Source: an uncultured bacterium | GTDB taxonomy: Bacteria; Babelota; Babeliae; Babelales; JABCYS01 | Direction of reading: 5' to 3' | Length of the DNA: 64,000 nt | NCBI GenBank assembly: GCA_963705705.1 | Contig: CAVPKK010000007.1 | Location: 96,001-160,000, forward strand | In this document: one piece after another, positions 13,136-63,857 of the stretch | Position numbering within the stretch: the first letter of the stretch is position 1 | Layout of the letters: each line of letters starts with the position of its first letter | Translations under genes and position numbers: made by a program | Notes under the pieces: generated by a model | The model's database searches: none | Told to the model about the DNA's origin: nothing | The model's input: the letters and a program-made list of their open reading frames with translations, nothing else

Positions 13136-13145
13136 AAGTCTTGCA

Positions 13146-28910: not shown

Positions 28911-28929
28911 AAAGAGCGAGAGTAATCCG

Positions 28930-30438: not shown

Positions 30439-30453
30439 AAAGGCGGGAGGAAT

Positions 30454-46712: not shown

Positions 46713-46719
46713 TTAAATC

Positions 46720-48477
46720 TTACTGATTATTTCGTTCCATATTTTGCAGATGCTGCAACAATCCTTGCTCGGCAGGTTCCGCCTCTGGCGCTGGTTCCAA
46801 CTGTCCCAGCAGTCGTTCTCGTTCCAAAAGACCAAGGCGCTGAACTAATTGATGTTCTGTTTCATTTCTATCCTCAGTCAATGGTTCCATTGCCAAAATA
46901 TGTCGTGCTATATCGACAGGTATTTGAGCTTCCTCATACCGTGAAATGAGATCTGATATAACTGGCAGATGGTGCTGACTAAGGAGGTTAAGCCGTGGCT
47001 GGTTGTTCGCTTGTTGAGCTCGTACATACGCCTTGAGCCGTGCAAGCAAGGTTGGATTTCGTTGAATGTGATTAAGCAACTCTCTGTTCATCCGATATCC
47101 CATCGAACCAGGATCAGATACATTTGAGAAGGTTGCCAGAAGAAAGCCAATTCTTTCGCCTGAAATGAATTGGCGGGCCATGGCCTCAGATAAACCACTG
47201 ACTTGAGGTAACCGCGCAAACAGCCCTGGAGACCCAACCCTCGCCGCTAAGCCTTCAGCCTGAACCATCCTGGTCGCAAAAGCTTCGGTCCAAAGATTAG
47301 ACAACTCGGGCGCCCCGTAGAGAGAAAAAGGCAATCCAGCACTAAAGGATGGTAGTTTTAGAAAGGGTCTATTATTTTGAATATGATCTTCGTCTAGAAC
47401 AGGCAAAATCTTGTTTTGAGCTGCCAAAAGCATTCTAAGTATGTCAGGATAATTTTCCTGGCTTGGTTTCTCTGGAAAACCTATGTGCGCAAACAGTTCA
47501 TCAGCAAAGCTTGTATCAACAACATGGCTACTAACAAAAATCCGATCTATTGCATCCCCAATAATAGATTTAGCATTTTTATATGCTTCAATATCATTGC
47601 GATCCAGTCTGGAAGTCATTGCATCCAATAATAGTTCGACAACATCAGCATGTCCGCCAACGGCCGCTAATGATAAAGCGGTTTGCCTTACCAAACTCAA
47701 TAAATTGCTCAGTTCATAGTTTGTGACAGCATCACGCAACAGAATTTGTTTTTCAGCTAGGTAAGGTCGTCTAAATTCTTTTGCACGAACCCTCTCAAAT
47801 AGCTGGCATATCGCCCGTGCATTAATTGTTGCTTCAGGATTTATCATGCCTGGCAGCAACCTATTGCAGAATTCAAGGCGGCCGCCATCTTCTGCTGCAA
47901 GAGATTGTCGAGCTAATTGCACATCTCCTGCCGCGGCCGCCCGCATTAATGGAGTCTCAAGAAAAGCATTCGGGCCTTGCTCAGGCTGCTTGCTTTCTTG
48001 ATCCGGCATTTGCCTTTGTTCCGGCCCATTTTGAACTTGAGGTCCAACGCCTATGGCATATGATCGAGATGCTGGTGAGCTGCTATTGCTTAGACTAGAT
48101 GAAGGCTTTCGAGCTGGTTCCTGCTTCTTTTCCTCTTCCCGATCGCCCTGAGGATTCGACAGGCTCATTGGTAAACGTCCTTCGATATTTGACGTCGAAT
48201 CGTTTACTCCTGAGTAGCCGATAGGCGTATCGAAGGATCGAAGGGGCTGCTCATTTTTTTCCGCCTTGAGCGTCGCGATCTCACGCAATAACTCTTGCTC
48301 TCGTGTTTCACGCTGCCGTTGCTCAGCTTGCATGGCCATCATTTGTTGCTGCATTGCCAACATCTGTTGTTGCATTGCGGCCAACAAATCAGGTGTAGGA
48401 TTATTATTAGTTGCTAGCGCACATACTGGCGCCAGTAATAAGGTGAATATTAATTTTTTCAACATTTTTAATTCCAT
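46720..48477 (-). CDS. Exported ankyrin-like effector family, member 2
   Basis: TPDLLAAMQQQM, SYAIG, TPLMRAAAAG, TALSLAAVGGH. Confidence 0.85.
   Translation of the reverse strand: MELKMLKKLIFTLLLAPVCALATNNNPTPDLLAAMQQQMLAMQQQMMAMQAEQRQRETREQELLREIATLKAEKNEQPLRSFDTPIGYSGVNDSTSNIEGRLPMSLSNPQGDREEEKKQEPARKPSSSLSNSSSPASRSYAIGVGPQVQNGPEQRQMPDQESKQPEQGPNAFLETPLMRAAAAGDVQLARQSLAAEDGGRLEFCNRLLPGMINPEATINARAICQLFERVRAKEFRRPYLAEKQILLRDAVTNYELSNLLSLVRQTALSLAAVGGHADVVELLLDAMTSRLDRNDIEAYKNAKSIIGDAIDRIFVSSHVVDTSFADELFAHIGFPEKPSQENYPDILRMLLAAQNKILPVLDEDHIQNNRPFLKLPSFSAGLPFSLYGAPELSNLWTEAFATRMVQAEGLAARVGSPGLFARLPQVSGLSEAMARQFISGERIGFLLATFSNVSDPGSMGYRMNRELLNHIQRNPTLLARLKAYVRAQQANNQPRLNLLSQHHLPVISDLISRYEEAQIPVDIARHILAMEPLTEDRNETEHQLVQRLGLLERERLLGQLEPAPEAEPAEQGLLQHLQNMERNNQ
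48155..48245. repeat. Cluster of family A palindrome pieces inside the member 2 coding linker
   Basis: + strand cgtttactcctgagta-gcc-gata-ggc-gtatcgaaggatcgaaggg (48201-48245); - strand cgtttaccaatgagcctgtcgaa. Confidence 0.7.
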
Positions 48478-48487
48478 TTAAATCTTA

Positions 48488-50266
48488 CTAATTGTTTTGT
48501 TCCATATTTTGCAGATGCTGCAACAAACCTTGCTCGGCAGGTTCCGCCTCTGGTGCTATCTCGGCATTATTGAGGCGTTGGTGAAGCTCTTGCCCAATGA
48601 AATTCCGATCTTCAGTCAATGGTTCCATCGCCAAGATCTGACGTGCAAGATCAGCGGGTATTGTTGGTTCTGCATAACAAGAAACGATATTTGATAAATC
48701 TGATATTCCGCTCATGTGTTCATTCAGTTGATTAGCAACTAACTGGCTGGTTGCCTGCTGCGTGCGTACATATGCTTTGAGCCGGGCAAGCAATTTTGGG
48801 TTTCGGGTCGCATATGCGAGCATTCCCCTGCTTAATTGATATACAGTGGAATCAGGAGAAGAATTCATGGAAAGCAACTTTCCAAGTTTTTCGCCGTTAT
48901 TGAACACACGGCCCATGCCTTCAAAGATGGCTTGTGACCCCGGCGGTGTTGGAACAATAAATCGTTTATTTGCATAAAATTCAGCCATAATTTGCAAACC
49001 TTCGGAAGAAGCAAGTAACATTCCACTCATAAACGGATTCCGAATGTTATCTATTCTGGCGTATGTAGACTCAAATGGCTCTAGTGCTTTCATATAAGCA
49101 ACAAATAGCTGTTTGAGGATCGCAGGATAATTTTCATACTTCGGTACAAATGGCAAACCTAAATTCTTTAAAAGTAATTCGCCAGCTTTTTTTACGACAA
49201 CCGGTGCCTTACCTATATTATGACTTTGATTCAACGCAGTGAATGCATTTAATATAATGTGGCAGATTTGATCAATAGATTCTTCATTCTTATCCATTAA
49301 TCCTTCTAATAACGTATTTAATAATGTCTCGACCACATTCTCATGGCCAGCTAGCGCAGCCAAAGATAATGCAGTTTGGTTCAACACAAACGCTTCGCAT
49401 GAATAAGCGTGCGGAGTTTCAACAAGGAACGGCAAGAGTAAATGAGCATCTGACGATTCCCAAGTACGGGGAATACAATCTGCGTTCGCATCCTTGGTTA
49501 TATATGAAGCAAGTGCGCGCGCATTGATAGCAGCATTGTGGTTCACAACAGTTGAAAACAAAGATTTGGTGACTTCCACACCTTTCGGATCATGTGCAAC
49601 TAAAAATTTAACTAAGCCATTCGCGCCCAATACCGCAGCTCGCATGAGTGTATGTTTTAAGAATGTTGCTACGCAATCTTGTTTTTGCCAAAATGCTGGC
49701 AATGTTTTTTCGATTGCAAGAAATTCTTCTGCAGCTTCAGGTGGCATGCCTGGTAATCCCGCCAATGCTGTAATGTCATATGCAGGTGAGTCATTATAAT
49801 TTTCTATGCTAAGCAATAGGGCACTCTTTTTTTCAACTTCAGGCCGTTTTTCTTCCTTTGGCTCAATCGTTACTTGTTTAGCCGGTTCACTTGGTTGGTT
49901 TACAACCGGAGCGCCGATTGCATAACTTTCCGAACGCCCCTCGATACTTTTTTGCTCTGCAAAAACACTCGGGGTGAGCGGGGCTGAGGAAGTCGACTCA
50001 ACGCGCAATGGGCCTGCTTTCTTTTCTTCATGTTCATCTCTTGATGGCTGACGTGCTGTACGCAATGTAACAATTTCGGTCTGCAATTCTTCCCGTTGTT
50101 TGCGTTCGGCCGCCAATTGACCTTGCATCGCCATCATCTGGCGTTGCATTTCCATCATCTGTTGTTGCATGGCTGCTAACAAATCAGGCGTTGGCGGATT
50201 GTTATTTGCTAGTACGCACACGGGCATAAGCAATAAAGTAAGGAATAAGTGTTTAATTAATTTCAT
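48488..50266 (-). CDS. Exported ankyrin-like effector family, member 3
   Basis: Start MKLIKHLFLTLLL; same motifs as the paralogues. Confidence 0.85.
   Translation of the reverse strand: MKLIKHLFLTLLLMPVCVLANNNPPTPDLLAAMQQQMMEMQRQMMAMQGQLAAERKQREELQTEIVTLRTARQPSRDEHEEKKAGPLRVESTSSAPLTPSVFAEQKSIEGRSESYAIGAPVVNQPSEPAKQVTIEPKEEKRPEVEKKSALLLSIENYNDSPAYDITALAGLPGMPPEAAEEFLAIEKTLPAFWQKQDCVATFLKHTLMRAAVLGANGLVKFLVAHDPKGVEVTKSLFSTVVNHNAAINARALASYITKDANADCIPRTWESSDAHLLLPFLVETPHAYSCEAFVLNQTALSLAALAGHENVVETLLNTLLEGLMDKNEESIDQICHIILNAFTALNQSHNIGKAPVVVKKAGELLLKNLGLPFVPKYENYPAILKQLFVAYMKALEPFESTYARIDNIRNPFMSGMLLASSEGLQIMAEFYANKRFIVPTPPGSQAIFEGMGRVFNNGEKLGKLLSMNSSPDSTVYQLSRGMLAYATRNPKLLARLKAYVRTQQATSQLVANQLNEHMSGISDLSNIVSCYAEPTIPADLARQILAMEPLTEDRNFIGQELHQRLNNAEIAPEAEPAEQGLLQHLQNMEQNN
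49937..49981 (-). repeat. Family A long-variant palindrome inside member 3, read as PLTPSVFAEQKSIEG
   Basis: ccgctcaccccgagtg-tttttgc-aga-gcaaaaa-agtatcgagggg matches intergenic 6597-6648. Confidence 0.8.
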
Positions 50267-50282
50267 GTTTTCCCCAGATGAA

Positions 50283-51605
50283 TTATATAACCGAGCGCAA
50301 GCGCTTAATTTCATTTTTGATATCGTTAATTATTGGTTGCGGTATATCGATTTAATCGGAAATTTCCAGAGCAATGGCAATACCCCCTGAGTTTGAGGGG
50401 ACCCATGTTCTTTCGCGGCCGAATACATCTTAAATAAATATTCATATCGAGATGTTTTTTTCAAACCCATCGCTAGTTTTGTGAGATTTATCAAGTTTAT
50501 CGCTCAGCTCTCCAGACTCATCAATTATTTCATGCACCTTCAAAAGCTTAGTTAGAATGGATCGATAATTATTGTATTTTGGCTTTTCTAGGATGCCCAT
50601 AGCTGCAAAGAATTCATCCACTAGTGTTGTTTTAACAATATTGGAAAGTTTGATGAGCGTAACCATCGCATCTTTTACTTGCGCTAAGATCGTTTCAGGC
50701 TCAATACCTTCTTGTTCAGTGCCTGCAAGCATCGCCTTTAATAATACATCGACCGTTTCTTCATGACCGCCAATTGTTGCTAAGGTTAAAGCGCCTATTT
50801 GCCGGGTTAAGAGAGGAAAGTGATGGTGAGAACAAATTGTTTCCTCATTGAGCATTGATCTCAAGGAGCATTCTGGTAGGTGGTTTCTCATAGCTATTAC
50901 GGCTTCAGGTGAATTATGCGGTTCCCTGAGATTATTTATGCAATCCTGTATATCTTTCAATCGGACTCGAGCATCATTTTTCGCCATCCATGGGCAAATA
51001 TTTGTGGTAGCAAGATAGTCTGCATTTTTTTCCAGGCATAATTCAGTGAGCTTTTTACTGCCAGTTGCTGCGGCCTTCATCAATGGGGTCAAGCCCTCAT
51101 CATTACTAATTAGGTCCAGACCAGATGATCGTTGATCACGTGCATTAACATTGGCTTTATGTACATCTAATAGTCGGCGGCATCTGTCTGTATCACCGCA
51201 ATCAATTGATGCAAACAACGCTGCATCGGCATCCGTTTGATCAAGTTCAATTTCCCGTTCTTTCTTCTCTGCTAGTTGAATACCTTTGGATTTCGGAGAT
51301 TGGCTGGCCAGAGGTAAGCCAATGGAAAAACTCTCCGATGGTCGCGGATTGCTGCCTGGTTCTTCGTCTTGCTGATTCTTTTTTTCTTCATCCTCAGATT
51401 GAGCAGACGATTTAGGAATACGCGATGCATGCAGTGCAGCTATTTCCTTCAGTAACGCTTCCTCGCGTTGGCGATGCTCATTTTGCATGACCAACATTTG
51501 TTGCTGCATTGCTGATAACAAATCAGGCGTAGCATTATTATTAGTTGCTAGCGTCCATATGGGCGCAAGCAATAATGTAAGAAATAAGTGTTTAATTAAT
51601 TTCAT
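50283..51605 (-). pseudogene. Effector family member 4, frameshifted and internally deleted
   Basis: ORF stops at 50442 just after an A7 run; the shifted frame continues paralogue-like (KTSRY..MY.A..HGS); 50283-50340 encodes QPIINDIKNEIKRLRSVI*. Confidence 0.7.
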
Positions 51606-51621
51606 GTTTTTCCCAGGTGCT

Positions 51622-53973
51622 TTATATAACCGAGCGAAGACGCTCAATTTCCTTTTTGATATCGTTAACTATTGGCTGCAGCAAGATTGAAATTTCTGTC
51701 GGCCCGCCAAAGTATTGAATCTTGGTTTTTGGATTTATTTGTGCAAGCATCTCAAGGGACATTGCCAGAGTATCAGCAGTGTACGGTTGGGTAGTATGCA
51801 AAAGCAAAACCTGATAGATTTGATCTGATTGACGTCTTAACTTCAAATCCATGCAAGCATTTAATAGTTCTTTCAATCGCGCCATGATTGTTTCCTTTTG
51901 TAGCCAACAGGCAAAAATACGCTGAATAACTTCTGCCGGCAGCTGTCTGTGATGTGCGGATGCATAACCTCGTACGAGGTCCGACAACACAGGAGGTAAT
52001 TCGGGATTAATCATATGATCCATCTGCAACTTGATCGACTGCTGTTCGCGAATAAACTCTTTCAAGCGATTTAGAAATATTGGATTCAATTGCTGATTGT
52101 GCTCAGTAGTTGTAAGCATAAATTCTCTCAATTGAGCAATTAATGATCCAGGTGCAGCATCAACGGTAAATAAAACAGCTAACTTTTCGCCGCAGGTAGA
52201 GTGTTGAATAAGATCTAGCCACTGAATTGAAAGACTGCCTGATAAGTCCGCCAATGACTCAGCAATTACTTGGAGCATATCAGTTGTGCCATGCTTTATC
52301 GCATTTTCAAATGTTTTTGAGATTTTTTCGCGATAATAAGCACCATTGCCGATCTGCACCTTTATTTCATATATAATGCGCGCCGCCTCAATAAGATTGC
52401 ATACTATTGCTTTGTATTGATCATGCGTTGGTTTTTCTCGTATGCCCATCGCTTCCAATAAACCATCGGCAACATCTGTTGAAATAAGATCAGAATACAA
52501 TATAAGCTTATGGATAGCTTCGTAAATGCTATTAATGCAATTTTGTTGCTCTTCATCATTCTTATTTGCAAATCCATCGAGTAGAGCTTCGGTTAGGAGT
52601 GCCACTGTTTCTTGATGTCCGCCAATCGCAGCGAGAGAAAGTGCATCAAGATCGCTTATTAGTTCGCCATGTCTAATCTCGCGGTTTTTACCAAGGACGG
52701 TATCACTGAGGATTGCAGTACCATCCTCACTAATACTCGATTCATACACGCGCGTGACCATTCTATGAAGCCATCGAGCCCCATTAGAGATTCCTACATT
52801 CCAATACGTTGACGGTACATTAATCGCATCTTTAAATAAGAGGCTCATAAGCTGCTTTATATTAATTTTAATTGTGCGATCTACCATCCAGGGGCAAAGT
52901 GCTACCTTTGCATAAAGATCAGCTTTTTTTGCGATGCAAAGTTCTACGCCCGCTGTATGGTTGGCAGCAGCAAATCGCATAAGTGGAGTAAATCCATTAT
53001 GAGAATTTGCAAACCAATCGAAAATGAATAGAAAAAGTTCACGAAGGGTTTGCCATTCGTGCGAATTCAAACTATCTACAGCTACGTCTAACCTTGACGC
53101 AATGGGTATAGCACCAGTTATTAAGCCTGGACGAACCTTTTTGAAAATCGCCAATGTCTTATTAAATAGTTGCATCAATGATTTAGGATTTATCAGAGTT
53201 AACCTTCTTCGATCTCGTTTATTGATGCTATCTGGATGCTGCTGAAAAAATTGGGCTATATCTTGAATATCTTGCGAATCTACGGCGTTAAATAAGGGAT
53301 CGCTGCTTATTGAATCATCAATTACATCCAGCAAGCGATCTATTTCGCGACCAACTAGGGCCACGATCATCTGGCGGGTAACAGGTTGCTGCTGTTGCGC
53401 CAAAAACTCATCTGGTAATTCCCCAACAATTTTTTGAAGAAGTTCGGCAGCATTTGATCGCAAGCCTGCTAAATATGCGCGGAACTCTTCAGGTGAAAGC
53501 TTTTGAAGATCTACAAGCGATTGCGGCAAATTGTTTTTTTCTTGTTCTTTTGCTTCTTCTGGCTTTGGCTTTTTACGCTCAACCCGATCATCCTGAGCGT
53601 GTCGAAGGATTGCTTCTTCACATTCCTTTTGCTCTTCACGTTGCGTGGGTTTGGCTAAAGGTTTTTTTTCTTCAGTTATTTGAGCAGATTGCTTTCTCGG
53701 CTGTTCAGGTTCTTTGCGGTCTTCTCTCTCCCCTTCCTGCTTGCTGTCTGGAATTTTGCTCTTATTTTCCGGAACGGGCAGATGAGCAGCAGGATCACCG
53801 ATAGCATATGAAGTTGACGGGCGAGGAACGCTACTATCGTTAGCATTATTTGCCGCAACCCTTTGCGCCGCCAATTCGCGACGGATTTGTTGCAGTGTTT
53901 TTGCGGGTTTGCCAGATGGCATAAGGGCAGCTGGCGTAAGTAATAAAATTAGAGATAAACGATTTAGTAGCAT
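51622..53973 (-). CDS. Exported ankyrin-like effector family, member 5
   Basis: SYAIG, GFTPLMRFAAA, ALSLAAIGGH, GEKLAVL. Confidence 0.85.
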   Translation of the reverse strand: MLLNRLSLILLLTPAALMPSGKPAKTLQQIRRELAAQRVAANNANDSSVPRPSTSYAIGDPAAHLPVPENKSKIPDSKQEGEREDRKEPEQPRKQSAQITEEKKPLAKPTQREEQKECEEAILRHAQDDRVERKKPKPEEAKEQEKNNLPQSLVDLQKLSPEEFRAYLAGLRSNAAELLQKIVGELPDEFLAQQQQPVTRQMIVALVGREIDRLLDVIDDSISSDPLFNAVDSQDIQDIAQFFQQHPDSINKRDRRRLTLINPKSLMQLFNKTLAIFKKVRPGLITGAIPIASRLDVAVDSLNSHEWQTLRELFLFIFDWFANSHNGFTPLMRFAAANHTAGVELCIAKKADLYAKVALCPWMVDRTIKINIKQLMSLLFKDAINVPSTYWNVGISNGARWLHRMVTRVYESSISEDGTAILSDTVLGKNREIRHGELISDLDALSLAAIGGHQETVALLTEALLDGFANKNDEEQQNCINSIYEAIHKLILYSDLISTDVADGLLEAMGIREKPTHDQYKAIVCNLIEAARIIYEIKVQIGNGAYYREKISKTFENAIKHGTTDMLQVIAESLADLSGSLSIQWLDLIQHSTCGEKLAVLFTVDAAPGSLIAQLREFMLTTTEHNQQLNPIFLNRLKEFIREQQSIKLQMDHMINPELPPVLSDLVRGYASAHHRQLPAEVIQRIFACWLQKETIMARLKELLNACMDLKLRRQSDQIYQVLLLHTTQPYTADTLAMSLEMLAQINPKTKIQYFGGPTEISILLQPIVNDIKKEIERLRSVI
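53584..53610 (+). repeat. Family A palindrome core inside member 5 (antisense, read as ILRHAQDDR)
   Basis: ccgatcatcctgagcgtgtcgaaggat. Confidence 0.75.
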
Positions 53974-54006
53974 GATTAACCTTCCATTTGATTATCTAAT
54001 TAAAAT

Positions 54007-55956
54007 TTATTGATATTGCGCCAGTAGCTCACGTTGCCGTGCAATTTCTAATGTTATCCGCGCCCGATTTCGCGCAACTAGATCAGAGATAAAGGGCGAT
54101 AGATCTGTGGGCCTCATAGTTGCAAGCTGCTCCGCCGCAAGCGATAACACATCGATGGTAAATGGTTGCGTTCGCACAATATCAAAAGCTTGTTGCGCTT
54201 GAGATTGCACTATGGCGCCCGCTTCCTTTTTTGCCGCTCGGGTTAATAGTTGCAATTGATCAACAAGCAATTTCTTGCCCGCACACAGCGGCATAATGCG
54301 CTCTATAAATTCTTGTCTTGGTAATGGATAGCGTTCGGCATATTCGCCAACAACACGTGATAAAACAGGCAGTAGGTGGTTGGCAGAAAGATGATCCATA
54401 GCCTTGCTGAGCATATGTTGTTCGCGAATAAAGTTTTGCATACGCTCAATGAATATTGGATAGGTTGCCGGAACCCATTCGAGGTCCTGAAGAATTGGTC
54501 TACTATCTAAATAGACTCTTGATTCTGGAATGGCATCAATTGCTAGCAATAGCGCCAACTTTTCGCCATCGTAGGTTTGTTTATAGAAACCAGACAAAAC
54601 TCCCTGATTCCCTACCACGGGTATTCGCGCAAGGAGTTCGGCTATAGGTTGCAGAATCTCAAGAGAACCTAATTCTAAAGCATAGACATACATATTGCCT
54701 AAATTGGTTGTGCTATATCTCGATATCTTTGAATAATGATCGTAGTCTCGAGCTCGTTCAAGATCCCTGTCGGCACAAAGCGTCTGCAGAAGTATTTCAT
54801 CAGGATCCATGGCTTGATGTGCTTTCAAAAGCTTGATCATGATGGATGAATAGTTATGATATTTTGGCTTTTCGGGGATGCCCATGGCGACAAAGAATTC
54901 ATCAACAAGATTTGTTTTTACAATTTTCGAAATTTTAATAAGGGTAACAATCGCAACTTTTATGCGACCTAATATTAATTCAGGTCTCACACCTTCTTGT
55001 TTACACTTCTCGAGCATCGCTTCTAGTAACAGATCAACTGCTTCCTCATGCCCACCAACCGTTGCGAGCGTTAAAGCATCTAACTCGCGAGTAAATAACG
55101 GAAAGTGCTGGTCTTTACAAATGGCAAGCGTGCCGAGCATCGATCTCAATGTACATTCAGGGATATGAAATCGCATATGACAGTATGGCGTAGGAGCATC
55201 ACTCGGTTCTTTAAGGTTGTCTATGCAATCATGTATTTCTTTTAATCGAACTCGTGCCTCCTCTTTTGCCATCCAAGGGCAAAGATTGGTGGTAGCGAGA
55301 TAATCTGCGTCTTTCTCAAGGCATAGCGCAATTAAGGCTTTGCTACCGGCAGCCGATGCCTTCATTAAAGATGTTAATCCCTCATCATTACTAATTGGAT
55401 CCAGACCAGATGCTCGTTGATCTCGTGCATTAACATTGGCTTTATGCACATCAAATAGGCGACGGCATGAGTCTATATCTCCGCCATCTATGGCTTCGAA
55501 TAATGCTGCATTGGCACCTGCTTGATCAAGTTGAATCTCAGGTTCTTTCTTTTCTACTGACTGAGGCGCTTTTGGTTTCGGAGCTTGGCTGACCACAGGT
55601 ACGCCAATTGCAAAACTTTCCGACGGGTGCGGATTGCTGCTCGGTTCTTCGTCTTGTTCAACATTCAAGGTTGGTTTTGAAGCAGCTGGCATAGGAATAC
55701 CTTCGCTGTTCTTTTTTTCTTCAAGCTCGGATTGAGCAGAGGATCTTGATGGAATATGCGATGCGCGAAGCGCAGCTATTTCTTTCAGGAATGCTTCCTC
55801 GCGCTGACGTTGCTCATTTTGCATGGACAACATTTGTTGCTGCATTGCTAAGATCTGCTGTTGCATTGCTGCCAATAAATCTGGTGTTGGTGGGTTATTG
55901 CTTGCGAGTGCTAAAGCTGGGGCAAGTAATAGGATAAGTGATACTTTTTTCATCAT
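54007..55956 (-). CDS. Exported ankyrin-like effector family, member 6
   Basis: ANVNARD, GLTSLMKASAAG, ALTLATVGGH; close paralogue of member 4. Confidence 0.85.
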   Translation of the reverse strand: MMKKVSLILLLAPALALASNNPPTPDLLAAMQQQILAMQQQMLSMQNEQRQREEAFLKEIAALRASHIPSRSSAQSELEEKKNSEGIPMPAASKPTLNVEQDEEPSSNPHPSESFAIGVPVVSQAPKPKAPQSVEKKEPEIQLDQAGANAALFEAIDGGDIDSCRRLFDVHKANVNARDQRASGLDPISNDEGLTSLMKASAAGSKALIALCLEKDADYLATTNLCPWMAKEEARVRLKEIHDCIDNLKEPSDAPTPYCHMRFHIPECTLRSMLGTLAICKDQHFPLFTRELDALTLATVGGHEEAVDLLLEAMLEKCKQEGVRPELILGRIKVAIVTLIKISKIVKTNLVDEFFVAMGIPEKPKYHNYSSIMIKLLKAHQAMDPDEILLQTLCADRDLERARDYDHYSKISRYSTTNLGNMYVYALELGSLEILQPIAELLARIPVVGNQGVLSGFYKQTYDGEKLALLLAIDAIPESRVYLDSRPILQDLEWVPATYPIFIERMQNFIREQHMLSKAMDHLSANHLLPVLSRVVGEYAERYPLPRQEFIERIMPLCAGKKLLVDQLQLLTRAAKKEAGAIVQSQAQQAFDIVRTQPFTIDVLSLAAEQLATMRPTDLSPFISDLVARNRARITLEIARQRELLAQYQ

Positions 55957-55990
55957 GATTAACCTTCCATCTAGTTAGTAATATTTAAAT

Positions 55991-57193
55991 TTATTTTAAG
56001 CCGGCACATACATTCTTATGCTCTTTCCAATGTTGTATTTGGCATTCTTTCTTGCAATACCAAATTTTTTTACATTGCGTACAGAATGGCATATTTGGTT
56101 GGCTTTTGCCGCAATTACCACATGCAATGGCCATCGACTGCAAAGATGAAGAAGATTTCTCATCTTGCTTACGTTCTGGATTTGATGGCGGCTGTGCGCT
56201 TTGTTTTTTTACAAAATCATCAAAACCTTTTTTGACATCGATTCCGCAAAAAAATGGCAGCTCCAACAGATCATCAAAGGATTCATCGGATAGGAGTTTT
56301 TGAGCGACATTTTCAGTCATACTAGCAATTTTCTCCAATGAGTTGCGGCCATTCGAAAAGATTACTTTATAGCCGACCTTTTCCAAATGAGGAATGACAT
56401 GCATTATATGATTATGCCCAAAGTGCAGGAAAATATGCTGAGTATTTCTGTGATCCCAAAACAGATGCAGTAACTTTGCATTAAGCATACCTGAGCAGAT
56501 GCCACGGTCATAATTCCTTGCTTGGCGCCCTGCATGAAATTGTTGTTGTGCAATTTCGAGCATCCTTCGGCTGTATGTAACAAATTCTTCTGGCGCGGTC
56601 GATGCAGAAACTTGTTTTTCGATGGCTTTATGCGCAGTAAAAAAATCCTCTGCCAATTCTTTCCAATCATCATCGCTTACAATCGGCTTTCCGGTAAGCA
56701 AATATCTAAATTCAGCATTAACTACCGGCAATTTGCTTTGTTTAAAACGTTGTGTGACGCGCGGAAGCAGCGACCCTGGCAATGCCTTCTGTAAACCCTC
56801 GATTTGTTTTTTATCCGGCCCATCGTAGTTGTAGATATCTTCATTAATAAGCAGCACCTGATTTGCAGGCAGCGAACAAGCATATTCCCTCAGTATGTCT
56901 GCTTGTTCGACTGACTTATCAGCCATTTTATACTTTAACAGTGTATCGAGGATCAGCTTGCGGTTACTTACTTCATCGATATCAAACGGTGGAAATTCCG
57001 ACGATCTGCTAGTAAGCAAACGCAATGCATGATGGGAAGCATATTCAGCGTGACAATCTGATAAGCAATACACATAATGAGGTTTGCCGTTTTCACCTTT
57101 GTTTTCCAAAATCGTCATCTCCAGCAAAATCGCATTGCTATAGCTTGCTGAAATGAGTGTCAGTAAAAACAACAATTTTTTAATTTGTATCAT
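55991..57193 (-). CDS. Exported protein with C-terminal MYND zinc finger
   Basis: CGNC...CTQCKKIWYCKKECQIQHWKEHKNVC; signal peptide. Confidence 0.85.
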   Translation of the reverse strand: MIQIKKLLFLLTLISASYSNAILLEMTILENKGENGKPHYVYCLSDCHAEYASHHALRLLTSRSSEFPPFDIDEVSNRKLILDTLLKYKMADKSVEQADILREYACSLPANQVLLINEDIYNYDGPDKKQIEGLQKALPGSLLPRVTQRFKQSKLPVVNAEFRYLLTGKPIVSDDDWKELAEDFFTAHKAIEKQVSASTAPEEFVTYSRRMLEIAQQQFHAGRQARNYDRGICSGMLNAKLLHLFWDHRNTQHIFLHFGHNHIMHVIPHLEKVGYKVIFSNGRNSLEKIASMTENVAQKLLSDESFDDLLELPFFCGIDVKKGFDDFVKKQSAQPPSNPERKQDEKSSSSLQSMAIACGNCGKSQPNMPFCTQCKKIWYCKKECQIQHWKEHKNVCAGLK

Positions 57194-57210
57194 GAGTATC
57201 CTTAAATAGA

Positions 57211-59394
57211 TTAACCGTGCTGCAAGCGATTAATTTCCCGATTAATGCCGCTCACTATTGGTTCCAATAAGAAGTTAACCGTAACCGGCTGGCCAAAGTA
57301 TTGGATTTTTGGCTTGGGATCAATTGCAGTGACCAACATTTTCACTAAAGCAACAATGTCTTTGGTATACGGTTGCGTTTTGATCAATTGTAGCGCATGC
57401 AAAATCGGCATTTTTGCGCGGTCCAATTTATGTTTGGTGGCAATCGTTTGAAGTTCGGTAAGTTGGTCAATAAGAATCTGTTTTTTAATTTGATCCAACT
57501 GAGCTGCCATTCTAGTTTGAACGGGGCTTGAAGATGGTGCCTGCTCGCGTTCTTTCTGCTCGACGGGCGGTTTTGGCGCCACTGGCCGATCAATAGCTAA
57601 AATGCGTTCAGCGATGTCTGCCGGTATGCGACGTGGATCTGCATAGTCATTCACAATCGCAGCGAGATCGGGAATTAACATTTGGCTAATTTCACCGTTC
57701 AACCCGATGAGCGCATTCTCTTGCTCATGCACAAAACCTTTTAAGCGGTAAAGGAATTCAGTATTAATTTTTGGATTCTTTTCCAAGTATGAAAGCATGC
57801 CGCGGCTTAACTGGAATACCAATGAATTTGGAACTGCATTTATTGATAAAAGAATTCCAAGCTTTTCGCCGCATTTAAGGCTATACACGAAATGTTCAAA
57901 AATCTTGTTGAACCGGCTCCCATGAGCATAGAATCCGAACGGATAGTTCCAATTAACATTAACTGGTGTTTGGGCAAATGCCTCAGCAATAACCCGTAAC
58001 ATTTCTGGCGTACCGTATTGCATTGCTGTCATGAGGAGTTGTTTCATTTGTTCATCGGATCCAAGTTGATATCTGCCATCATCAGGAAGACGAAATATTC
58101 TCGACGTTGCTTGGAACAGTTTTTTTGCAATCGCATCATACCGTTCAAGATTCGGCTTTTCTGGAATGCCAAAAAAATTCAAAAACTCATCAGCACAATT
58201 GGTTTTAATAAGATTGGAATACATAATGAGTTTGGTAAGCGCATTCTTAATTGAACTCACTATTCTATCAACATCTTGTTGAGTTCCTCGACTGTTATAA
58301 TGAAGATCACTGATCATTGCATCAAGTAAAAGATCGACAATCTCTTCATGACCACCAATTGTTGCTAATGATAATGGATCAATCATATCAGCTAAAGAAA
58401 CAAGCCATTCAGGGGAATGTCGAAGCCCGTCTAGTAACTGGCCAAACGGTTTGTTAGTTAAAGAATGGTACCAGAGATTTTCAACTAACTTATCTTTGTT
58501 CATCTGCGATTCTAGTGCTTGCTCATTAATGGTGATTTTTCTACTTACCGTCGTTGAGTCAAATCGTGGCTGAGTAAATAGAAAAGCTTTCTGGGCAAGG
58601 AGCAACTCGACGATCCTTTTGTCGCCACGTGCAGCGGCACGCATTAATGTGGTAAAGCCATTATTAGTAAAGCCATTATTTATACGACGATGCCACATCG
58701 ATATCAAATTATCCAATCGAGGGCCACACTTTCTCATAAATTTCGCGGCTTCAATACTTGCTTCGTTCATATAGGTAGATAATGTTGAACAATTCGCCCG
58801 TAGTTGCATTAATTGCGCATTAAGCTGACCTAATTTACTTTTAATTTCTTCTATGTCGGAAGCAAAAAGATTTCGTTCTATCAAATTAGGCACCAATGAA
58901 ACATAATCAGGTGCGTCAACTTGTACTAATTTTTTATCTAGCAGTTCTTTGTATTGGGCAGCAGTTAGTGTCCCTTTCTGAATACCAATGAAGGGTATGG
59001 AATCGATAGCATATGATGATGGGTCAATTATTTGGGCTAACAGATCGGCTATATTTCTTTGATGGTATTCATCATGACTAGGCCCCATTTCGATAAGGCG
59101 GCAGTCAACAACAAGTTTTCGGTACATAGCAACTGCGCGACTCGCTGCTGCTTCGCTTTCAGTTACTGGACGCGGCACGCTGCTCGCCTCGAGCTGTTTT
59201 TCTTCCTCTACTTTTGCAAAAGAACGTGGATCGCCAATGGCATAGCTAGGCGAGGAGCTCGCGGAAATTGATACCACAAAAAGAGTGGAAACGGCAAAAA
59301 TTGCTACGCTCACCAGTAATTTGAAAATAAATATGCCGACAAGAAGACCAAAAGAACAGCAAAAACGATTAGAAATACGACAACACGGATTCAT
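57211..59394 (-). CDS. Ankyrin-like effector family, member 7 (hydrophobic N-terminus)
   Basis: GGAGG RBS before MNPCC; SYAIG, GFTTLMRAAARG, LSLATIGGH; C-terminus like member 5. Confidence 0.85.
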   Translation of the reverse strand: MNPCCRISNRFCCSFGLLVGIFIFKLLVSVAIFAVSTLFVVSISASSSPSYAIGDPRSFAKVEEEKQLEASSVPRPVTESEAAASRAVAMYRKLVVDCRLIEMGPSHDEYHQRNIADLLAQIIDPSSYAIDSIPFIGIQKGTLTAAQYKELLDKKLVQVDAPDYVSLVPNLIERNLFASDIEEIKSKLGQLNAQLMQLRANCSTLSTYMNEASIEAAKFMRKCGPRLDNLISMWHRRINNGFTNNGFTTLMRAAARGDKRIVELLLAQKAFLFTQPRFDSTTVSRKITINEQALESQMNKDKLVENLWYHSLTNKPFGQLLDGLRHSPEWLVSLADMIDPLSLATIGGHEEIVDLLLDAMISDLHYNSRGTQQDVDRIVSSIKNALTKLIMYSNLIKTNCADEFLNFFGIPEKPNLERYDAIAKKLFQATSRIFRLPDDGRYQLGSDEQMKQLLMTAMQYGTPEMLRVIAEAFAQTPVNVNWNYPFGFYAHGSRFNKIFEHFVYSLKCGEKLGILLSINAVPNSLVFQLSRGMLSYLEKNPKINTEFLYRLKGFVHEQENALIGLNGEISQMLIPDLAAIVNDYADPRRIPADIAERILAIDRPVAPKPPVEQKEREQAPSSSPVQTRMAAQLDQIKKQILIDQLTELQTIATKHKLDRAKMPILHALQLIKTQPYTKDIVALVKMLVTAIDPKPKIQYFGQPVTVNFLLEPIVSGINREINRLQHG

Positions 59395-59431
59395 AATAAC
59401 CTCCATCAAGTCCGTTCTACGGACGAAGCCT

Positions 59432-59482
59432 CGCCGAAGCTCATTGCCTATAAGATCTAACCACAAGCAAAAGCGTAGGCGG
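59432..59482 (+). repeat. Palindromic element family B, stand-alone copy
   Basis: cgccgaagctcat...gcaaaagcgtaggcgg; ends match 62942-63046. Confidence 0.6.
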
Positions 59483-59995
59483 GCAAATTTTAGGCACGTA
59501 CCCATTCAAGGTACGTATTCCTTCGAAACATATTCCATTTGAATGACTTAAGTATTGTATTAGAGCATAATCTGGCCGTCAAAAGGCTGGAGGCGCATTT
59601 TTGGTCAAAAATGGACAGGCAAAGAGCTAACTATAGCCAGACTCAGAGCCAATATTGCCTATTTTTTACGAGCTCAGCTTTTTCGCAAAAAATCAATGGT
59701 TTCTTTTCTATATGTGCAAAATGGCCGGGTCAATGCGCTCTCTATTGTTACACGGTGGCAATTTTTGGACGTTTCGGCACTAGTTTTTAAGGAAAAAATG
59801 GGCTGATTTTTGATGTTTTCAATGGCATGGGGTCAAATTTCAATATGGTTATTCGCCCATATACTTACAGGCAACCAGTGAAAAAAGGTCCATAATTAAG
59901 GCCTATGATCGAGTTTGTTATCGAGCACTTTTATATACCGCGCAAATCCGGTACATTTAATAGTAATTAATAAGCCGGGTCTTGGGGGAATTTTA

Positions 59996-62191
59996 ATGGT
60001 TCACAGATTATCATGGTATCTAACAGCCATTGTGTTAGCCGTTCCATTAATCGCGATTGCGCCTGATACAGATATATCAACGGATGAGTCTGCTGCCGAT
60101 GATATTCCTTCGGCGGAACTGGTTGTCTCCTTCAATCAATCGGTAGATGAAAAATTTGTAGAAGATGCAGAAAATTCTCGAGCCCCAAAATCTAGAAATG
60201 CCATATTCTATGCGATAGCAGCCGGTGATTTGGAAGCGGTGCGACAAATTATTATTTTTGATGAGGATGCACTTAATAGAGCATATGAATATAAAGCGAC
60301 TGAAAAATCCTTCGATGGCTTTCATTCAAGCCCCTATAATGGCGATACGCCACTCATCTATTTAGTAAAGACCATCATTGATCTGCACAAAGCATATGAC
60401 TCAAGAAAATTCTCTGATGAATTCACTATCCAACTAGCATTCGAACATCGCTTTACTTTGGTATCTGAGATCTTATTTCATCCCAAAACAATCAGCTCTG
60501 GTGAAAATGCCGATGGACATACGGCTGTTACCTTGGCCGCCCAGGCCGGGCTTGTACGGTTGGCAAACTTGCTTAGCAGCGGAACTCATCCTGCACCCAA
60601 GCAAACTGACGTTAGCCAATTCAAAGCACGGTTAGCAAAATTGGATGTGTCAGCTGAAGTGCGCAAGCGCATTAATGCAGAAATTGATGTGCTCGGCCAA
60701 AAGCATCCGGCTGAACGTGGTTTGCAGATTAATTTCATCAATGCCTTATTGGATTTGCCCTGGGACAAAACAGCTGATACCGCCGTCGACATTGCTACTG
60801 TGCAAGAAGCGCTTGAATCCGAGCATTATGCGTTGAAGAAAGTTAAAGACGCGGTACTTGATTATCTTGCGGTCGCATCGGTGAGCCAATCTCTTGGGAA
60901 AAGCAAAATAATCTGCTTAGTCGGCCCGCCTGGAACGGGTAAAACATCGGTTGTGCAATCAATTGCTCGAGGGCTTAATCGACCATTGGCAAAAGTATGT
61001 CTTGGCGGTGCACATGATGAATCGGTAATTCGCGGGCACAATAAAAGTTATATCAGTGCCACGCCCGGTGAAATTATAAAAGGCATTATTCACGCCAAGG
61101 TAAGAAATCCGGTCATTCTCTTAGATGAAATAGATAAAATTGGGACCAGCCAATATAACGGCAACCCTTCATCTGCCCTACTCGAAGTGCTTGATCCCGA
61201 ACAAAATCATTCATTCATCGATCGCTTTGTCGAAGTACCATTCGATCTTTCAGAATGCCTCTTTATTGCTACTGCCAACTCTAAACGAGAAATTCCTCTG
61301 CCATTGTTGGATCGCTTAGAAATTATTGAAGTGCCTGGTTATTCTTTGGAAGAAAAGGTACAGATTGCGCAAAATTACTTGGTACCCAAAATAATACGGG
61401 AAGCAACATCGACTGAGCTAATTTTTGACATTGGCGAGGATGTAATTCGCTCGATCATAAAAAATTACACATTCGAATCTGGGGTGCGCAAATTGACGCA
61501 GCATCTGAAAACCTTATTTGCCAAGACGGCGCGGCAATATCTAGACAAGCGAACGGTGCCGATCATCACTCCGGAAAATCTTACGGAATATCTAGGACCT
61601 TCATTTAATTTCCCCCGCCTCTCACAGGCGCCGGCAGTGGGCATTGTTAATTGCTTATCAGTTTCACCTGGTTTCGGCGGAGCAACCAGCTTTTTGGAAG
61701 TGGTGTTGGTACCAAATGGAAAAGGTGATTTAAAGGTTTCCAAAGTGCTTGAAAATGATAGTGAAAATGCTGCTGCCATTGCACTGGCCTATGTTCGTTC
61801 ACATGCACAAGAATTAGGTATTTCAGCTTCGCAGCTTTCTTCAAACGATATTCATGTGCACAAACCTGGTATTGGACATGTCGACGGCCCTTCTGCCGGT
61901 ATCGCCAATGTTACAGCCATGGTATCTGCCTTCACCAATAAACTATGTGATCCAACTTATGCTATGACTGGAGAGCTGAGCTTGACCGGTAAGGTGATGG
62001 CCATTGGTGGATTGAAAGAAAAGATTTTGGCGGCCAAGCGTGAAGGCATTAAGAAAGTTATTATCCCGCGTGAGAATGAATCGGAATTATATGATTTTAA
62101 GCAGTTGCTCGATGGTATTGAGATTATACCAGTCAGTGATGTGCGCGAAGTATTAAGTAAAGTTTTGTTACCGAATTCAAGAAAAAGGTAA
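59996..62191 (+). CDS. lon: Lon-family ATP-dependent protease with signal peptide and ankyrin-like N-terminus
   Basis: GPPGTGKT, LLDEIDK, ALLEVLDPEQN, PLLDRLE, DGPSAG, AMTGEL.LTG, GGLKEK. Confidence 0.9.
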   Translation: MVHRLSWYLTAIVLAVPLIAIAPDTDISTDESAADDIPSAELVVSFNQSVDEKFVEDAENSRAPKSRNAIFYAIAAGDLEAVRQIIIFDEDALNRAYEYKATEKSFDGFHSSPYNGDTPLIYLVKTIIDLHKAYDSRKFSDEFTIQLAFEHRFTLVSEILFHPKTISSGENADGHTAVTLAAQAGLVRLANLLSSGTHPAPKQTDVSQFKARLAKLDVSAEVRKRINAEIDVLGQKHPAERGLQINFINALLDLPWDKTADTAVDIATVQEALESEHYALKKVKDAVLDYLAVASVSQSLGKSKIICLVGPPGTGKTSVVQSIARGLNRPLAKVCLGGAHDESVIRGHNKSYISATPGEIIKGIIHAKVRNPVILLDEIDKIGTSQYNGNPSSALLEVLDPEQNHSFIDRFVEVPFDLSECLFIATANSKREIPLPLLDRLEIIEVPGYSLEEKVQIAQNYLVPKIIREATSTELIFDIGEDVIRSIIKNYTFESGVRKLTQHLKTLFAKTARQYLDKRTVPIITPENLTEYLGPSFNFPRLSQAPAVGIVNCLSVSPGFGGATSFLEVVLVPNGKGDLKVSKVLENDSENAAAIALAYVRSHAQELGISASQLSSNDIHVHKPGIGHVDGPSAGIANVTAMVSAFTNKLCDPTYAMTGELSLTGKVMAIGGLKEKILAAKREGIKKVIIPRENESELYDFKQLLDGIEIIPVSDVREVLSKVLLPNSRKR

Positions 62192-62195
62192 GTCG

Positions 62196-62846
62196 ATGAT
62201 GATTACAAGAATAGCTTCTTTAGCCCTTCTGCTAAATATTTGGACCTTACAGGCATCTCCGGTGGTTGCACATAATTTACCGATTAGAAGTTCTAATCAA
62301 AAACTCACGCCAACGGAAATGCTGGCGGTCGGTATTATTACTGCATCACCAAGCTTGGTTGCAACGGCAATAAAGAAAGGCGCCTACTTGCGCGTGCAGA
62401 TAGATCAGTTTGGTGATACACCACTGATGCTTGCCATTCGTGTGTTTGGTCATTCATTGAAAACGCAATTGGAAGCAAAATCAAGCCGTTTACAGAGACT
62501 CTGCAGTTTTGCTTCTGGATTAGTTATTTCCCAATTGCTCATGTGGCAAGGCTCTAAATTTATACCAGACAGATGGCAATCGGCGTATAACATTTTCAAT
62601 CTTGCCGCGCTCGTCGGCCCTGTTGGCTATTATGCCCGTCAATCAATGAAACCCACAATCGCTACCCAACGCGCCGCACGCATTATTCTTATGCTGATGC
62701 AGCAAGATCCTCAGATGAGCCTTCGCAATCATGAAAGCCTCACACCAAAGGATATCCTTGAAGCGTTTTATCCTATCGCCCGTACGCTGCAAAGTGAAGA
62801 ATGGTTTACTTTGCGACGAATCTTCTCGCAGTTGAATGTTGGGTAA
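62196..62846 (+). CDS. Exported/membrane protein with a split ankyrin-like repeat
   Basis: Signal peptide, DQFGDTPLMLAI, two hydrophobic segments, RNHESLTP.D. Confidence 0.6.
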   Translation: MMITRIASLALLLNIWTLQASPVVAHNLPIRSSNQKLTPTEMLAVGIITASPSLVATAIKKGAYLRVQIDQFGDTPLMLAIRVFGHSLKTQLEAKSSRLQRLCSFASGLVISQLLMWQGSKFIPDRWQSAYNIFNLAALVGPVGYYARQSMKPTIATQRAARIILMLMQQDPQMSLRNHESLTPKDILEAFYPIARTLQSEEWFTLRRIFSQLNVG

Positions 62847-63336: not shown

Positions 63337-63857
63337 TGATTAAGTTTTTAGCGCTCATCCTGAGTTTATCGAAGGATAAAAGCGCTACAGTGATATTGTT
63401 AACCCATAACCAAATCATAAAATCCATCCTTTAACTTATGAATCATTTCTTCGTTTACATCCTTAAATGTAGCAACGGCAGATTTTACACCGGACACACC
63501 GACAACCTCGAACTCCGACTATCCGAACACAAACAAAGAAAAGACCCAAAATGCTATACCGCAACCCGCTTGCCGATCCAATTGGTTTTTCATGCCGTTT
63601 TTGAGTCCCGTGAAGCAGCCTTTAATGCTGAAATGAAGATCAAAGGATGGTCCAGGGAGAAAAAGGAAGCCTTAATTAATGGTGATTGGGAGGAACTGAA
63701 GCGGCTGTCCAATTTAAAAAATGATTTGGCCAATTCGCAATCATATTGGCGATCGATATCGTTTGAGATATTAAAGGATGTATGAATTCATTTATTACCG
63801 CTTACTGAGTCTTCCTCGCGCTTTTATCCTTCGATAAACTCAGGATGAGCGCGGCGT
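63337..63857. mobile_element. GIY-YIG nuclease cassette bracketed by inverted family A palindromes
   Basis: 63350-63386 (+) and 63817-63853 (-) flank a single gene. Confidence 0.7.
63438..63785 (+). CDS. GIY-YIG nuclease (UPF0213/YhbQ-like)
   Basis: FVYILKC...FYTGHT.NL..RL.EH, YT..R.P, A...E..IKGWSR.KKEAL. Confidence 0.93.
   Translation: MNHFFVYILKCSNGRFYTGHTDNLELRLSEHKQRKDPKCYTATRLPIQLVFHAVFESREAAFNAEMKIKGWSREKKEALINGDWEELKRLSNLKNDLANSQSYWRSISFEILKDV

Follow-up and report, generated by a model that had tools for sequence, protein, structure and literature searches.

ATP-dependent proteases are machines of the cytoplasm, the matrix or the stroma, and ATP is generally assumed to be missing from the bacterial periplasm and from the outside of the cell. 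The locus described here raises the question of what a Lon protease would do, and where, when it begins with a signal-like peptide and an ankyrin-like head. The gene lies on the plus strand of a 64-kb window, the whole stretch of DNA analysed (64,000 nucleotides). Judged by protein similarity, the source is a Dependentiae (TM6) genome: the best named matches of the ThrRS encoded in the window come from Candidatus Babeliales/Dependentiae, at ~62% identity. The reading frame spans 59915..62191. Its ATG at 59996, the only ATG ahead of residue ~640, opens a protein of 731 residues, which we call P0001 (Table 1). Because homologues are found over its full length at E = 0, P0001 is not a chance open reading frame. 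Statements given below with a PMC number draw on excerpts of the papers cited.

Table 1. Features of the ankyrin-headed Lon locus, in window coordinates
Feature	Position	Strand	Basis
Conserved upstream block CTTTTATATACC..CAAATC.GGTACATTTA	59928..59961	+	Alignment of two sequences only: window versus L001
Shine-Dalgarno-like GGGGGA, 6 nt 5' of the ATG	59984..59989	+	Read from the sequence
Whole CDS, ankyrin-headed LonA-like protease P0001, 731 aa	59996..62191	+	Pfam, TIGR00763, homologues, LonA structure alignment
Signal-peptide-like N-terminus, aa 1–22 (MVHR, hydrophobic core, AIA)	59996..60061	+	KD11 3.03; 19 uncharged residues
Acidic, predicted disordered linker, aa 23–67	60062..60196	+	Net charge −10 over 40 residues; pLDDT < 50
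Ankyrin-like domain, three helix-hairpin repeats, aa 68–196	60197..60583	+	Pfam Ank in homologues, N-domain homology, model, PDB structural matches
LonA-type helical subdomain ahead of the AAA+ module, aa 204–296	60605..60883	+	Aligns to LonA positions ~245–340; helices at 204–296
AAA+ ATPase module with lid, aa 300–533	60893..61594	+	Pfam, family alignment, LonA structures
Lon S16 protease domain, aa 545–724	61628..62167	+	Pfam, family alignment, LonA structures
216-aa ORF, 4 nt past the Lon stop codon	62196..62846	+	Signal-like start, one ankyrin-like GDTPL unit, later hydrophobic stretches

The LonA-like core and the ankyrin-like head

The preliminary description had read an intact AAA+ module and Ser-Lys dyad from short motifs, and this reading holds. 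All of the motifs quoted (GPPGTGKT, DEIDK, DGPSAG, GGLKEK, IFYAIAAGDLEAVRQII, GDTPL and DGHTAVTLAAQAG) are found in P0001, and Pfam identifies Lon_C (PF05362) at residues 524–724 (4e-49), AAA at residues 306–444, and Lon_lid. The match to TIGR00763 is limited to residues 202–724, equivalent to model positions 251–795, and its score of 547.7 bits lies below the curated equivalog cutoff of 608.05. Solved LonA structures align only from residue ~204, which corresponds to chain position ~245. By these alignments the LonA core of P0001, residues ~204–724, is complete.

Key residues of the AAA+ module are K316 in Walker A, D377 and E378 in Walker B, the pore-loop Y352, N428, R440 and R498. GPPGTGKT, DEID and the sensor, Arg-finger and pore-loop aromatic residues are invariant in the family described below and match solved Lon structures. 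The dyad consists of Ser633 (codon 61892–61894), within DGPSAG, and Lys676 (codon 62021–62023), within GGLKEK. Across the family little or no variation is seen in the Walker A and B residues, Y352, N428, R440, R498, S633 and K676. Since the catalytic residues are kept, we conclude from the alignment that ATP-dependent proteolysis is under selection in this family. For the serine motifs, LonA-type DGPSA versus [ED]GDSA[ST], we use the definitions in PMC2605481.

Ahead of the core, the preliminary description had proposed that ankyrin-like repeats replace the usual N-domain, and had named as its converse an N-terminus that folds as a standard LON domain. Pfam gives no match to PF02190 (LAN) in P0001 at E <= 0.1. 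The predicted model of residues 24–215 is all-helical, with no beta strands, and is ankyrin-like rather than LON-like: the head forms three helix pairs at pLDDT ~90, with unusually long helices in the middle repeat. The PDB matches listed for this model are all ankyrin-repeat proteins, mostly designed (DARPins); their Foldseek E-values are weak, 3.6e-3 to 2.3e-2 with none <= 1e-3, and their query-normalised TM-scores are 0.2–0.42. In an Atlas feature search, 28 of 30 matches fell in ankyrin clusters (score 0.97). The Pfam Ank_2 score of P0001, 18.6 bits, is under the gathering cutoff of 27.3, which is exceeded in 5 of the 12 family members (P0003, P0004, P0248, P0256 and P0279). For P0001 itself Pfam thus gives the ankyrin assignment little weight, and its homologues and the predicted fold lend it modest support.

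The signal-like N-terminus, the family and the neighbourhood

Signal peptides were called with our own hydrophobicity and charge rules. A Sec signal was defined by a basic n-region, a hydrophobic h-region, small residues at −3 and −1, and no positive charge right after them. These features are all found in P0001, where the basic n-region MVHR leads into the uncharged core and then the acidic stretch of Table 1. A rule of KD11 >= 2.2 was replaced, having flagged many canonical Lons, whose LAN domain opens with a hydrophobic stretch. The stricter rule has at least one visible false positive, P0357. It flags 11 of the 12 family members, the remaining one, P0261, having no complete signal-like start, and it flags none of the cytoplasmic housekeeping enzymes of the window. 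The signal-like peptide noticed at the outset thus withstood the check. The six members found first all have a basic n-region, an uncharged core of 16–19 residues, Ala at −1 and a following acidic stretch with a net charge of −5 to −14. In 10 of the 11 other members an ordinary A-x-A-type site is followed by D, S, E, N or G. P0001 has Pro directly after AIA, and Pro at +1 is disfavoured by signal peptidase I; to judge from the residues present, the cut may lie two residues further towards the N-terminus, or there may be none, which would leave a membrane tether. Beyond the N-terminus, P0001 contains no window of KD19 > 1.6.

The N-domain of P0001 is homologous to those of 11 other proteins in public data (E <= 1.8e-10), and the 12 proteins form one clade (SH-aLRT 97). 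A separate clade of 62 rows (support 98) holds all 60 randomly sampled canonical Lons. Top matches of the profile search that carry two or three tandem AAA+ modules were excluded from the family, their scores being summed over modules. Signal-like peptide, acidic linker, ankyrin-like head and intact LonA core are together conserved in this small family, in line with the architecture first described. Between P0001 and P0002 the head is 50% and the core 73% identical; by this comparison the head is evolving faster than the core. Taken from its alignments, P0001 is a LonA-derived protease in which the LAN domain has given way to an ankyrin-like domain of three repeats, preceded by a signal-like peptide and an acidic linker.

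The Lon gene adjoins seven paralogues from a family with ankyrin repeats, mostly with signal-like N-termini, and a gene combining a signal peptide with MYND is also a neighbour. No T2SS genes were seen within the 64-kb window. Scanning a collection of genome contigs yielded a single orthologous locus, L001, together with 39 loci of canonical lon. The genes upstream at L001 (GyrA, DprA, GltX) are unlike those of the window, and the neighbourhood is not conserved at this single orthologous locus recovered, whose contig stops ~160 bp 3' of the Lon orthologue. The upstream block at 59928..59961 is common to both loci despite the differing neighbour genes, and from its conservation is possibly a promoter or operator. 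A promoter and terminator scan around the Lon gene found sites no more numerous than in shuffled sequence.

A second ankyrin-like gene a few bases downstream had also been reported, and it is there: the 216-aa ORF starts at 62196, with the signal-like start and GDTPL unit of Table 1, and hhalign aligns it to the first repeat of the Lon N-domain at a probability of 90.8% (E 1.2e-6). Pfam and NCBIfam give no match to it. Only two homologues were found, at ~60% identity, on contigs of 1.6–1.9 kb that are too short for linkage. The ORF may be co-transcribed with the Lon gene.

Where the protease might act

To judge from its sequence, the site of action of P0001 is probably not the bacterial cytoplasm. 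As obligate parasites of protists, Dependentiae take up ATP from the host, as described for C. destructans, in which 44% of coding sequences and 78% of ankyrin proteins have signal peptides (PMC6561590). A T2SS is the sole secretion system found in Babela massiliensis (PMC4378268), and both a T2SS and ATP/ADP translocases occur in 7 of the 7 TM6 genomes studied (PMC4776705). It is on the organism and on this published Dependentiae genomics that the suggestion of host delivery rests. We see an even prospect that P0001 is an ATP-dependent protease which is exported, is targeted through its ankyrin head and acts in a place supplied with host ATP, most probably the host cytosol. The signal peptide would carry the unfolded chain over the inner membrane, and exit would follow via the type II secretion system or outer-membrane vesicles, as the published genomes suggest. 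The Lon ring would assemble where host ATP is present, again most likely in the host cytosol. The ankyrin head would sit above the pore, at the usual position of the LAN domain, and bind particular host proteins, which the ATPase would unfold and the Ser-Lys chamber degrade. By our estimate six 731-aa chains make a Lon hexamer of ~480 kDa; counting against secretion, a hexamer of this size would need to assemble afterwards.

The same signal-peptide evidence would suit an ATP-dependent protease that resides in the periplasm, or faces it from a membrane tether, and turns over envelope or imported proteins. The Pro at +1 of P0001 could block cleavage and so provide the tether, and the conserved ATPase motifs fit as well. 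ATP/ADP translocases in 7 of 7 TM6 genomes (PMC4776705) and ATP import by C. destructans (PMC6561590) add to the case. On its way to translocases in the inner membrane, host ATP has to pass the outer membrane and the periplasm, and therefore a periplasmic Lon could be fuelled; the premise of a periplasm without ATP may fail when a bacterium draws host ATP in through its envelope. To our knowledge, the ATP concentration in the periplasm of such a parasite has never been measured. Because a host-ATP importer may have ATP there, we take a periplasmic site seriously, yet consider it unlikely: in 10 of the 11 other members the A-x-A-type site is ordinary, with none of the Pro seen at +1 in P0001, and the Dependentiae literature reads ankyrin heads and signal-peptide ankyrin genes as host-directed (PMC6561590, PMC4378268).

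The requirement for ATP would be trivially met if the peptide were an uncleaved N-out/C-in anchor that holds head and core on the cytoplasmic side of the membrane, like membrane-bound LonB or FtsH. Borderline transmembrane-like stretches, 19-residue windows with KD > 1.6, occur in three of the six members found first. The charges, however, are reversed for such an anchor, with K/R before the hydrophobic core and a net −5 to −14 after it; the 16–19 uncharged residues with a 10–12-residue core and a small-residue end are those of a typical cleavable signal, and the AAA+ module has no LonB-like hydrophobic insertion. We regard the anchor as decidedly unlikely. It is very unlikely, in our judgement, that P0001 is a Lon paralogue of the ordinary cytoplasmic kind to which an ankyrin adaptor has been added, its signal-like peptide being non-functional, mis-predicted or untranslated. 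P0261 does have no complete signal-like start, and the unusually high rate of signal-peptide prediction in Dependentiae, 44% of coding sequences (PMC6561590), might include false positives. Against this, 11 of the 12 members have a peptide of this kind, with a sequence that is not conserved, and the cytoplasmic housekeeping enzymes of the window have no such N-termini. The sole early ATG, at 59996, moreover has a Shine-Dalgarno-like site, as in the L001 orthologue, where GGGAG is read 7 nt ahead of its own ATG.

In a phylum that depends on ATP from its hosts, the family unites a signal for export with a binding head of eukaryotic style and with ATPase and protease residues that are fully conserved. 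If the protease is exported, energy-dependent targeted protein destruction would be exportable too, and the family would offer a testable case of a pathogen that supplies its own degradation machine rather than hijacking ubiquitin. The natural swap of the substrate-recognition domain is useful for understanding, and possibly redesigning, the specificity of Lon. Among the papers listed in literature searches, with subscription journals outside their scope, no description of an ankyrin-Lon or of an exported Lon was found, and the excerpt of PMC2605481, on Lon motifs, does not mention ankyrin. Tentatively, and with rather less than even confidence, we propose that P0001 is the first AAA+ unfoldase-protease built for work outside the bacterial cytoplasm. 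Whether Sec-exported into a eukaryotic host or placed in a host-ATP-flooded periplasm, it would select host proteins with its ankyrin head and destroy them at the cost of ATP, independently of ubiquitin. The wider signal-peptide Lons, whose heads are ankyrin, TPR-like, LAN or tandem-AAA, would in that case be one modular family of degradation machines that intracellular parasites export.

Comparison with known systems

P0001 shares with canonical LonA (E. coli, Thermus, Meiothermus; PDB 7p6u, 7fd4, 6u5z) the helical subdomain, the AAA+ module with its lid and an S16 domain with a DGPSAG-type Ser-Lys dyad. Matches to LonA structures in the PDB reach E = 2e-120 and are aligned over residues ~204–726, and database LonA proteins are ~40–47% identical to the P0001 core. 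Unlike them, P0001 has no LAN domain (PF02190), carries the signal-like peptide, acidic linker and ankyrin-like head instead, and belongs to a separate clade. Babela massiliensis has two canonical COG0466 Lon genes with a SignalP score of 0, and TM6SC1 has three COG0466 genes (both from supplement data); the cultured Babela appears to be without the ankyrin-headed form.

Eight metagenome proteins (P0287, P0283, P0269, P0266, P0247, P0010, P0265 and P0271) likewise have a Lon core behind canonical ankyrin repeats, a signal-like N-terminus or both, and fall outside the 62-row clade of sampled canonical Lons. Their N-domains differ, with no BLASTP similarity to the P0001 head detectable; P0010 retains a LAN domain behind its signal peptide.

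With the membrane-anchored LonB of archaea and bacteria, P0001 has in common a hydrophobic segment that targets a Lon protease to the membrane. In LonB this segment interrupts the AAA+ module, with the catalytic parts on the cytoplasmic side, whereas P0001 has it at the N-terminus in signal-like form and has the dyad motif DGPSAG, not [ED]GDSA[ST]. An assignment of P0001 to LonB was rejected on the serine motif and on the lack of a hydrophobic window outside the N-terminus.

Ankyrin-plus-enzyme effectors such as Legionella AnkX and Rickettsia RARP-2 also join an ankyrin module to a catalytic domain; host delivery is known for these effectors and suggested for P0001. AnkX and RARP-2 leave the bacterium by type IV secretion and have no Sec signal, and we know of no AAA+ unfoldase-protease among effectors of this kind.

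A parallel in architecture is found within the same phylum. The nine AAA-ATPase proteins with a Ulp1-like peptidase in Babela massiliensis (PMC4378268) differ from P0001 in that the peptidase is a cysteine protease of C48, not Lon S16, and in having no ankyrin head. They too carry a predicted signal peptide on an ATPase-peptidase fusion, and their authors propose that they act in the amoeba cytoplasm (PMC4378268).

The exchanged N-terminal domain

The enzymatic part of the ankyrin-headed Lon protease, P0001, is that of LonA. All motifs cited for 59996..62191 in the preliminary description were found in its translation, and the catalytic residues of both ATPase and protease are invariant or nearly so across its family. 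Pfam matches comprise AAA (aa 306–444), Lon_lid (477–519) and Lon_C (524–724, 4e-49), with no match to PF02190, the LON substrate-binding (LAN) domain; Ank_2 reaches a weak 18.6 bits, below its cutoff of 27.3. Residues 202–724 correspond to positions 251–795 of the NCBIfam Lon equivalog TIGR00763, and the score, 547.7 bits, lies under the cutoff of 608.05 because model positions 1–250 have no counterpart. The alignment with solved LonA structures begins at aa ~204, equivalent to chain residue ~245, and extends to aa ~726. The domain swap is therefore clean: P0001 keeps LonA from the helical subdomain onward, and only the globular N-domain is exchanged.

The new N-domain, or head, and the core behind it were modeled with AlphaFold, using family alignments that held 13 and 12 sequences. 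In the models, aa 1–64 are disordered (pLDDT < 50) and aa ~68–195 form a confident, all-helical domain of three helix pairs, the middle pair being unusually long (17 and 19 residues). C-terminal to the head are the LonA helical bundle, AAA+ module, lid and protease. Among the matches listed by Foldseek for the N-domain model against the PDB, there are only ankyrin-repeat proteins (DARPins, INK4 proteins, IkappaB-zeta and others), with probabilities of 0.8–1.0, weak E-values of 3.6e-3 to 2.3e-2 (none <= 1e-3) and query-normalised TM-scores of 0.2–0.42. A language-model feature search with aa 62–200 returned ankyrin clusters in 28 of 30 matches (score 0.97), and Ank_2 exceeds the Pfam cutoff in five of the 12 proteins with a homologous N-domain. 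The head is certainly not a LON domain, and from its predicted fold we conclude that it is a divergent three-repeat ankyrin-type domain. The lack of PF02190, the all-helical model and the listed PDB matches bear out the earlier proposal that ankyrin-like units replace the LON domain.

A family of Lons with signal-like N-termini

A word-indexed search of 5.8 billion proteins identified five relatives of the same layout (39–66% identity); the remaining matches listed are canonical LonA proteins aligned over the core only. Further members came from 1.84 billion cluster representatives searched with a profile, and BLASTP with aa 1–215 found the N-domain in 11 other proteins (E <= 1.8e-10). We built a Lon-core tree of 92 rows, consisting of the 12 family members, other ankyrin or signal-peptide Lons and 60 random canonical Lons from the collected hits, by a quick IQ-TREE search with a midpoint root for drawing only; P0357, a false positive, was left out. 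The family forms one clade (SH-aLRT 97). A second clade (support 98) takes in the 60 canonical Lons as well as P0249 and P0264; the other signal- or ankyrin-bearing Lons lie outside this canonical clade, without resolved placement. Between P0001 and the family member P0002, identity is 50% in the head and 73% in the core; by this comparison the head diverges faster.

At aa 1–22, P0001 has MVHR and then a 19-residue uncharged stretch ending in AIA; the following 40 residues carry a net charge of -10. This layout is common to its five closest relatives, which have one to five K/R in the n-region, an uncharged core of 16–19 residues, Ala at -1 and an acidic stretch beyond it (net charge -5 to -14). 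The residue directly after AIA in P0001 is proline, which is disfavoured by signal peptidase I at this position, and the cleavage site is therefore uncertain. Signal-like N-termini were called with a home-made stricter rule based on hydrophobicity and charge, not a dedicated predictor, and P0357 is visibly a false positive of it. The rule flags 31 of 269 collected Lon-like proteins. Eleven of these are from the family of 12, and the one member it misses, P0261, has a start that looks truncated. When applied to the 40 long ORFs of the window, it flags 11, none of them a cytoplasmic housekeeping enzyme.

Canonical ankyrin arrays occur on the Lons P0287, P0283, P0269, P0266 and P0247, other heads stand behind signal-like peptides in P0265 and P0271, and P0010 has a signal-like peptide before a normal LAN domain. 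Exported-looking Lons therefore extend beyond the family of P0001.

A separate group (P0241–P0245, P0249, P0251, P0252, P0254, P0255 and others) has two or three tandem AAA+/Lon_lid modules followed by a single Lon_C. These proteins are 889–1675 aa long, and several have signal-like N-termini by the stricter rule. In P0247, ankyrin repeats occur together with two AAA modules and Lon_C.

Genomic neighbourhood

Features of the window in and around the ankyrin-Lon gene
Feature	Position	Strand	Remarks
Thioredoxin-reductase homologue	11064-12134	-	first 22 residues signal-like, KD11 2.68; FAD-binding GSGPAG after
Ku + ATP-dependent LigD-type ligase	12290-14283	+	bacterial non-homologous end-joining pair in reduced parasite genome
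Four tandem leucine-rich-repeat (LRR) proteins	26375-32010	+	27624-28910 and 30454-32010 flagged signal-bearing
FtsH-like protein, 940 aa	33754-36576	-	extra CDC48-like AAA (aa 222-471), then FtsH AAA+protease (aa 488-924)
Seven tandem paralogous genes, ankyrin-containing family	45444-59505	-	26-65% pairwise identity; most with signal-like N-termini
Signal-like N-terminus + C-terminal eukaryote-type MYND zinc finger, 400 aa	55991-57193	-	PF01753, 9.6e-10
Conserved block, ~35 nt	59928-59961; ~9924-9957 in orthologous locus L001		~35-70 nt 5' of Lon start; TACC-N10-GGTA palindrome; two-locus comparison
Ankyrin-Lon ORF	59915..62191	+	ORF extent
Ankyrin-Lon start codon, ATG	59996	+	GGGGGA six bases 5'; gives 731-aa P0001
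Downstream ORF with signal-like start	62196..62846	+	begins 4 nt past Lon stop codon
Small stand-alone GIY-YIG nuclease-domain protein	63438-63785	+	PF01541, 1.3e-14

The seven paralogues, an expanded family of effector-like character, immediately adjoin the Lon gene, and the last of them runs divergently to it. The two paralogues scanned with Pfam (54007-55956 and 57211-59505) both contain ankyrin repeats. At the one orthologous locus recovered, the upstream genes differ from those in the window; the conserved block may be an operator or promoter.

Downstream, the preliminary description had noted a second exported-looking ankyrin-like gene, and its signal-like start, the 4-nt gap and an hhalign match to the head agree with this. 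One unit of the ORF is a relative of the head's first repeat (hhalign 90.8%, E 1.2e-6). Neither Pfam nor NCBIfam gave a match to the ORF; an Atlas search returned ankyrin-like features (0.94–0.95) with a low shared-feature count, a lead only. Two homologues were found, both on contigs of insufficient length to show linkage. The product is a possible partner of the ankyrin-Lon.

The window also encodes LRR proteins, an ankyrin protein, Ku, LigD, PBP2, MreC and SppA. Its threonyl-tRNA synthetase has its best named matches, at ~62% identity, in Candidatus Babeliales/Dependentiae. The likeness of all four LRR proteins to LRR effectors from other bacteria is confined to the repeats, and a signal-like motif ~35 residues into ORF 28828-30438 suggests that its true start lies later. 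ATP-dependent Zn proteases and CDC48-like ATPases are described as expanded in Dependentiae (PMC4378268). The thioredoxin-reductase homologue narrowly misses the stricter rule; if its signal is real, it would be another exported-looking, cofactor-dependent ‘cytoplasmic’ enzyme.

Site of action and relation to known systems

The most economical reading is that P0001 is an exported protease running on host ATP, with the ankyrin head in the role of the LAN domain. This reading draws on published Dependentiae genomics. C. destructans is reported to import host ATP and to carry signal peptides on 44% of CDS overall and on 78% of the ankyrin proteins, a Lon of this species being classed by the authors as cytoplasmic (PMC6561590). 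A T2SS is the sole secretion system reported for Babela, where a family of AAA-ATPase plus Ulp1-peptidase proteins also bears signal peptides (PMC4378268); T2SS components and ATP/ADP translocases are given for all seven TM6 genomes compared (PMC4776705). The ankyrin domain would take over the LAN domain's job, and the site may be the host cytosol, in keeping with the head and the effector-like neighbourhood. A periplasmic or tethered Lon is also feasible, since the periplasm of an energy parasite presumably must pass host ATP to the translocases. A Lon kept in the cytoplasm by an N-out/C-in anchor is at odds with the charge distribution. What the preliminary description proposed as a possible host-delivered protease has a real, conserved and unusual architecture, and that interpretation is supported in part; that its final location is outside the cytoplasm is something we infer. 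A protease that needs ATP and seems made for export goes against a textbook rule on compartments.

The annotation table of Babela lists two Lon genes, each canonical and with a SignalP score of 0; TM6SC1 carries three COG0466 genes. Given the canonical Lons of Babela, the putatively exported form is an addition in some lineages and not the only Lon of the phylum. Neither the openly accessible literature searched nor passages of a domain-architecture survey (PMC2605481) described a LonA with an ankyrin head or a signal peptide. Judged by its sequence, P0001 is a LonA descendant that should work like LonA, but it lacks two features of membership, the LAN domain and a score above the TIGR00763 equivalog cutoff; it is not a LonB. 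The nearest concepts are effectors that join ankyrin repeats to an enzyme, and the signal-peptide AAA-peptidase fusions of Babela.
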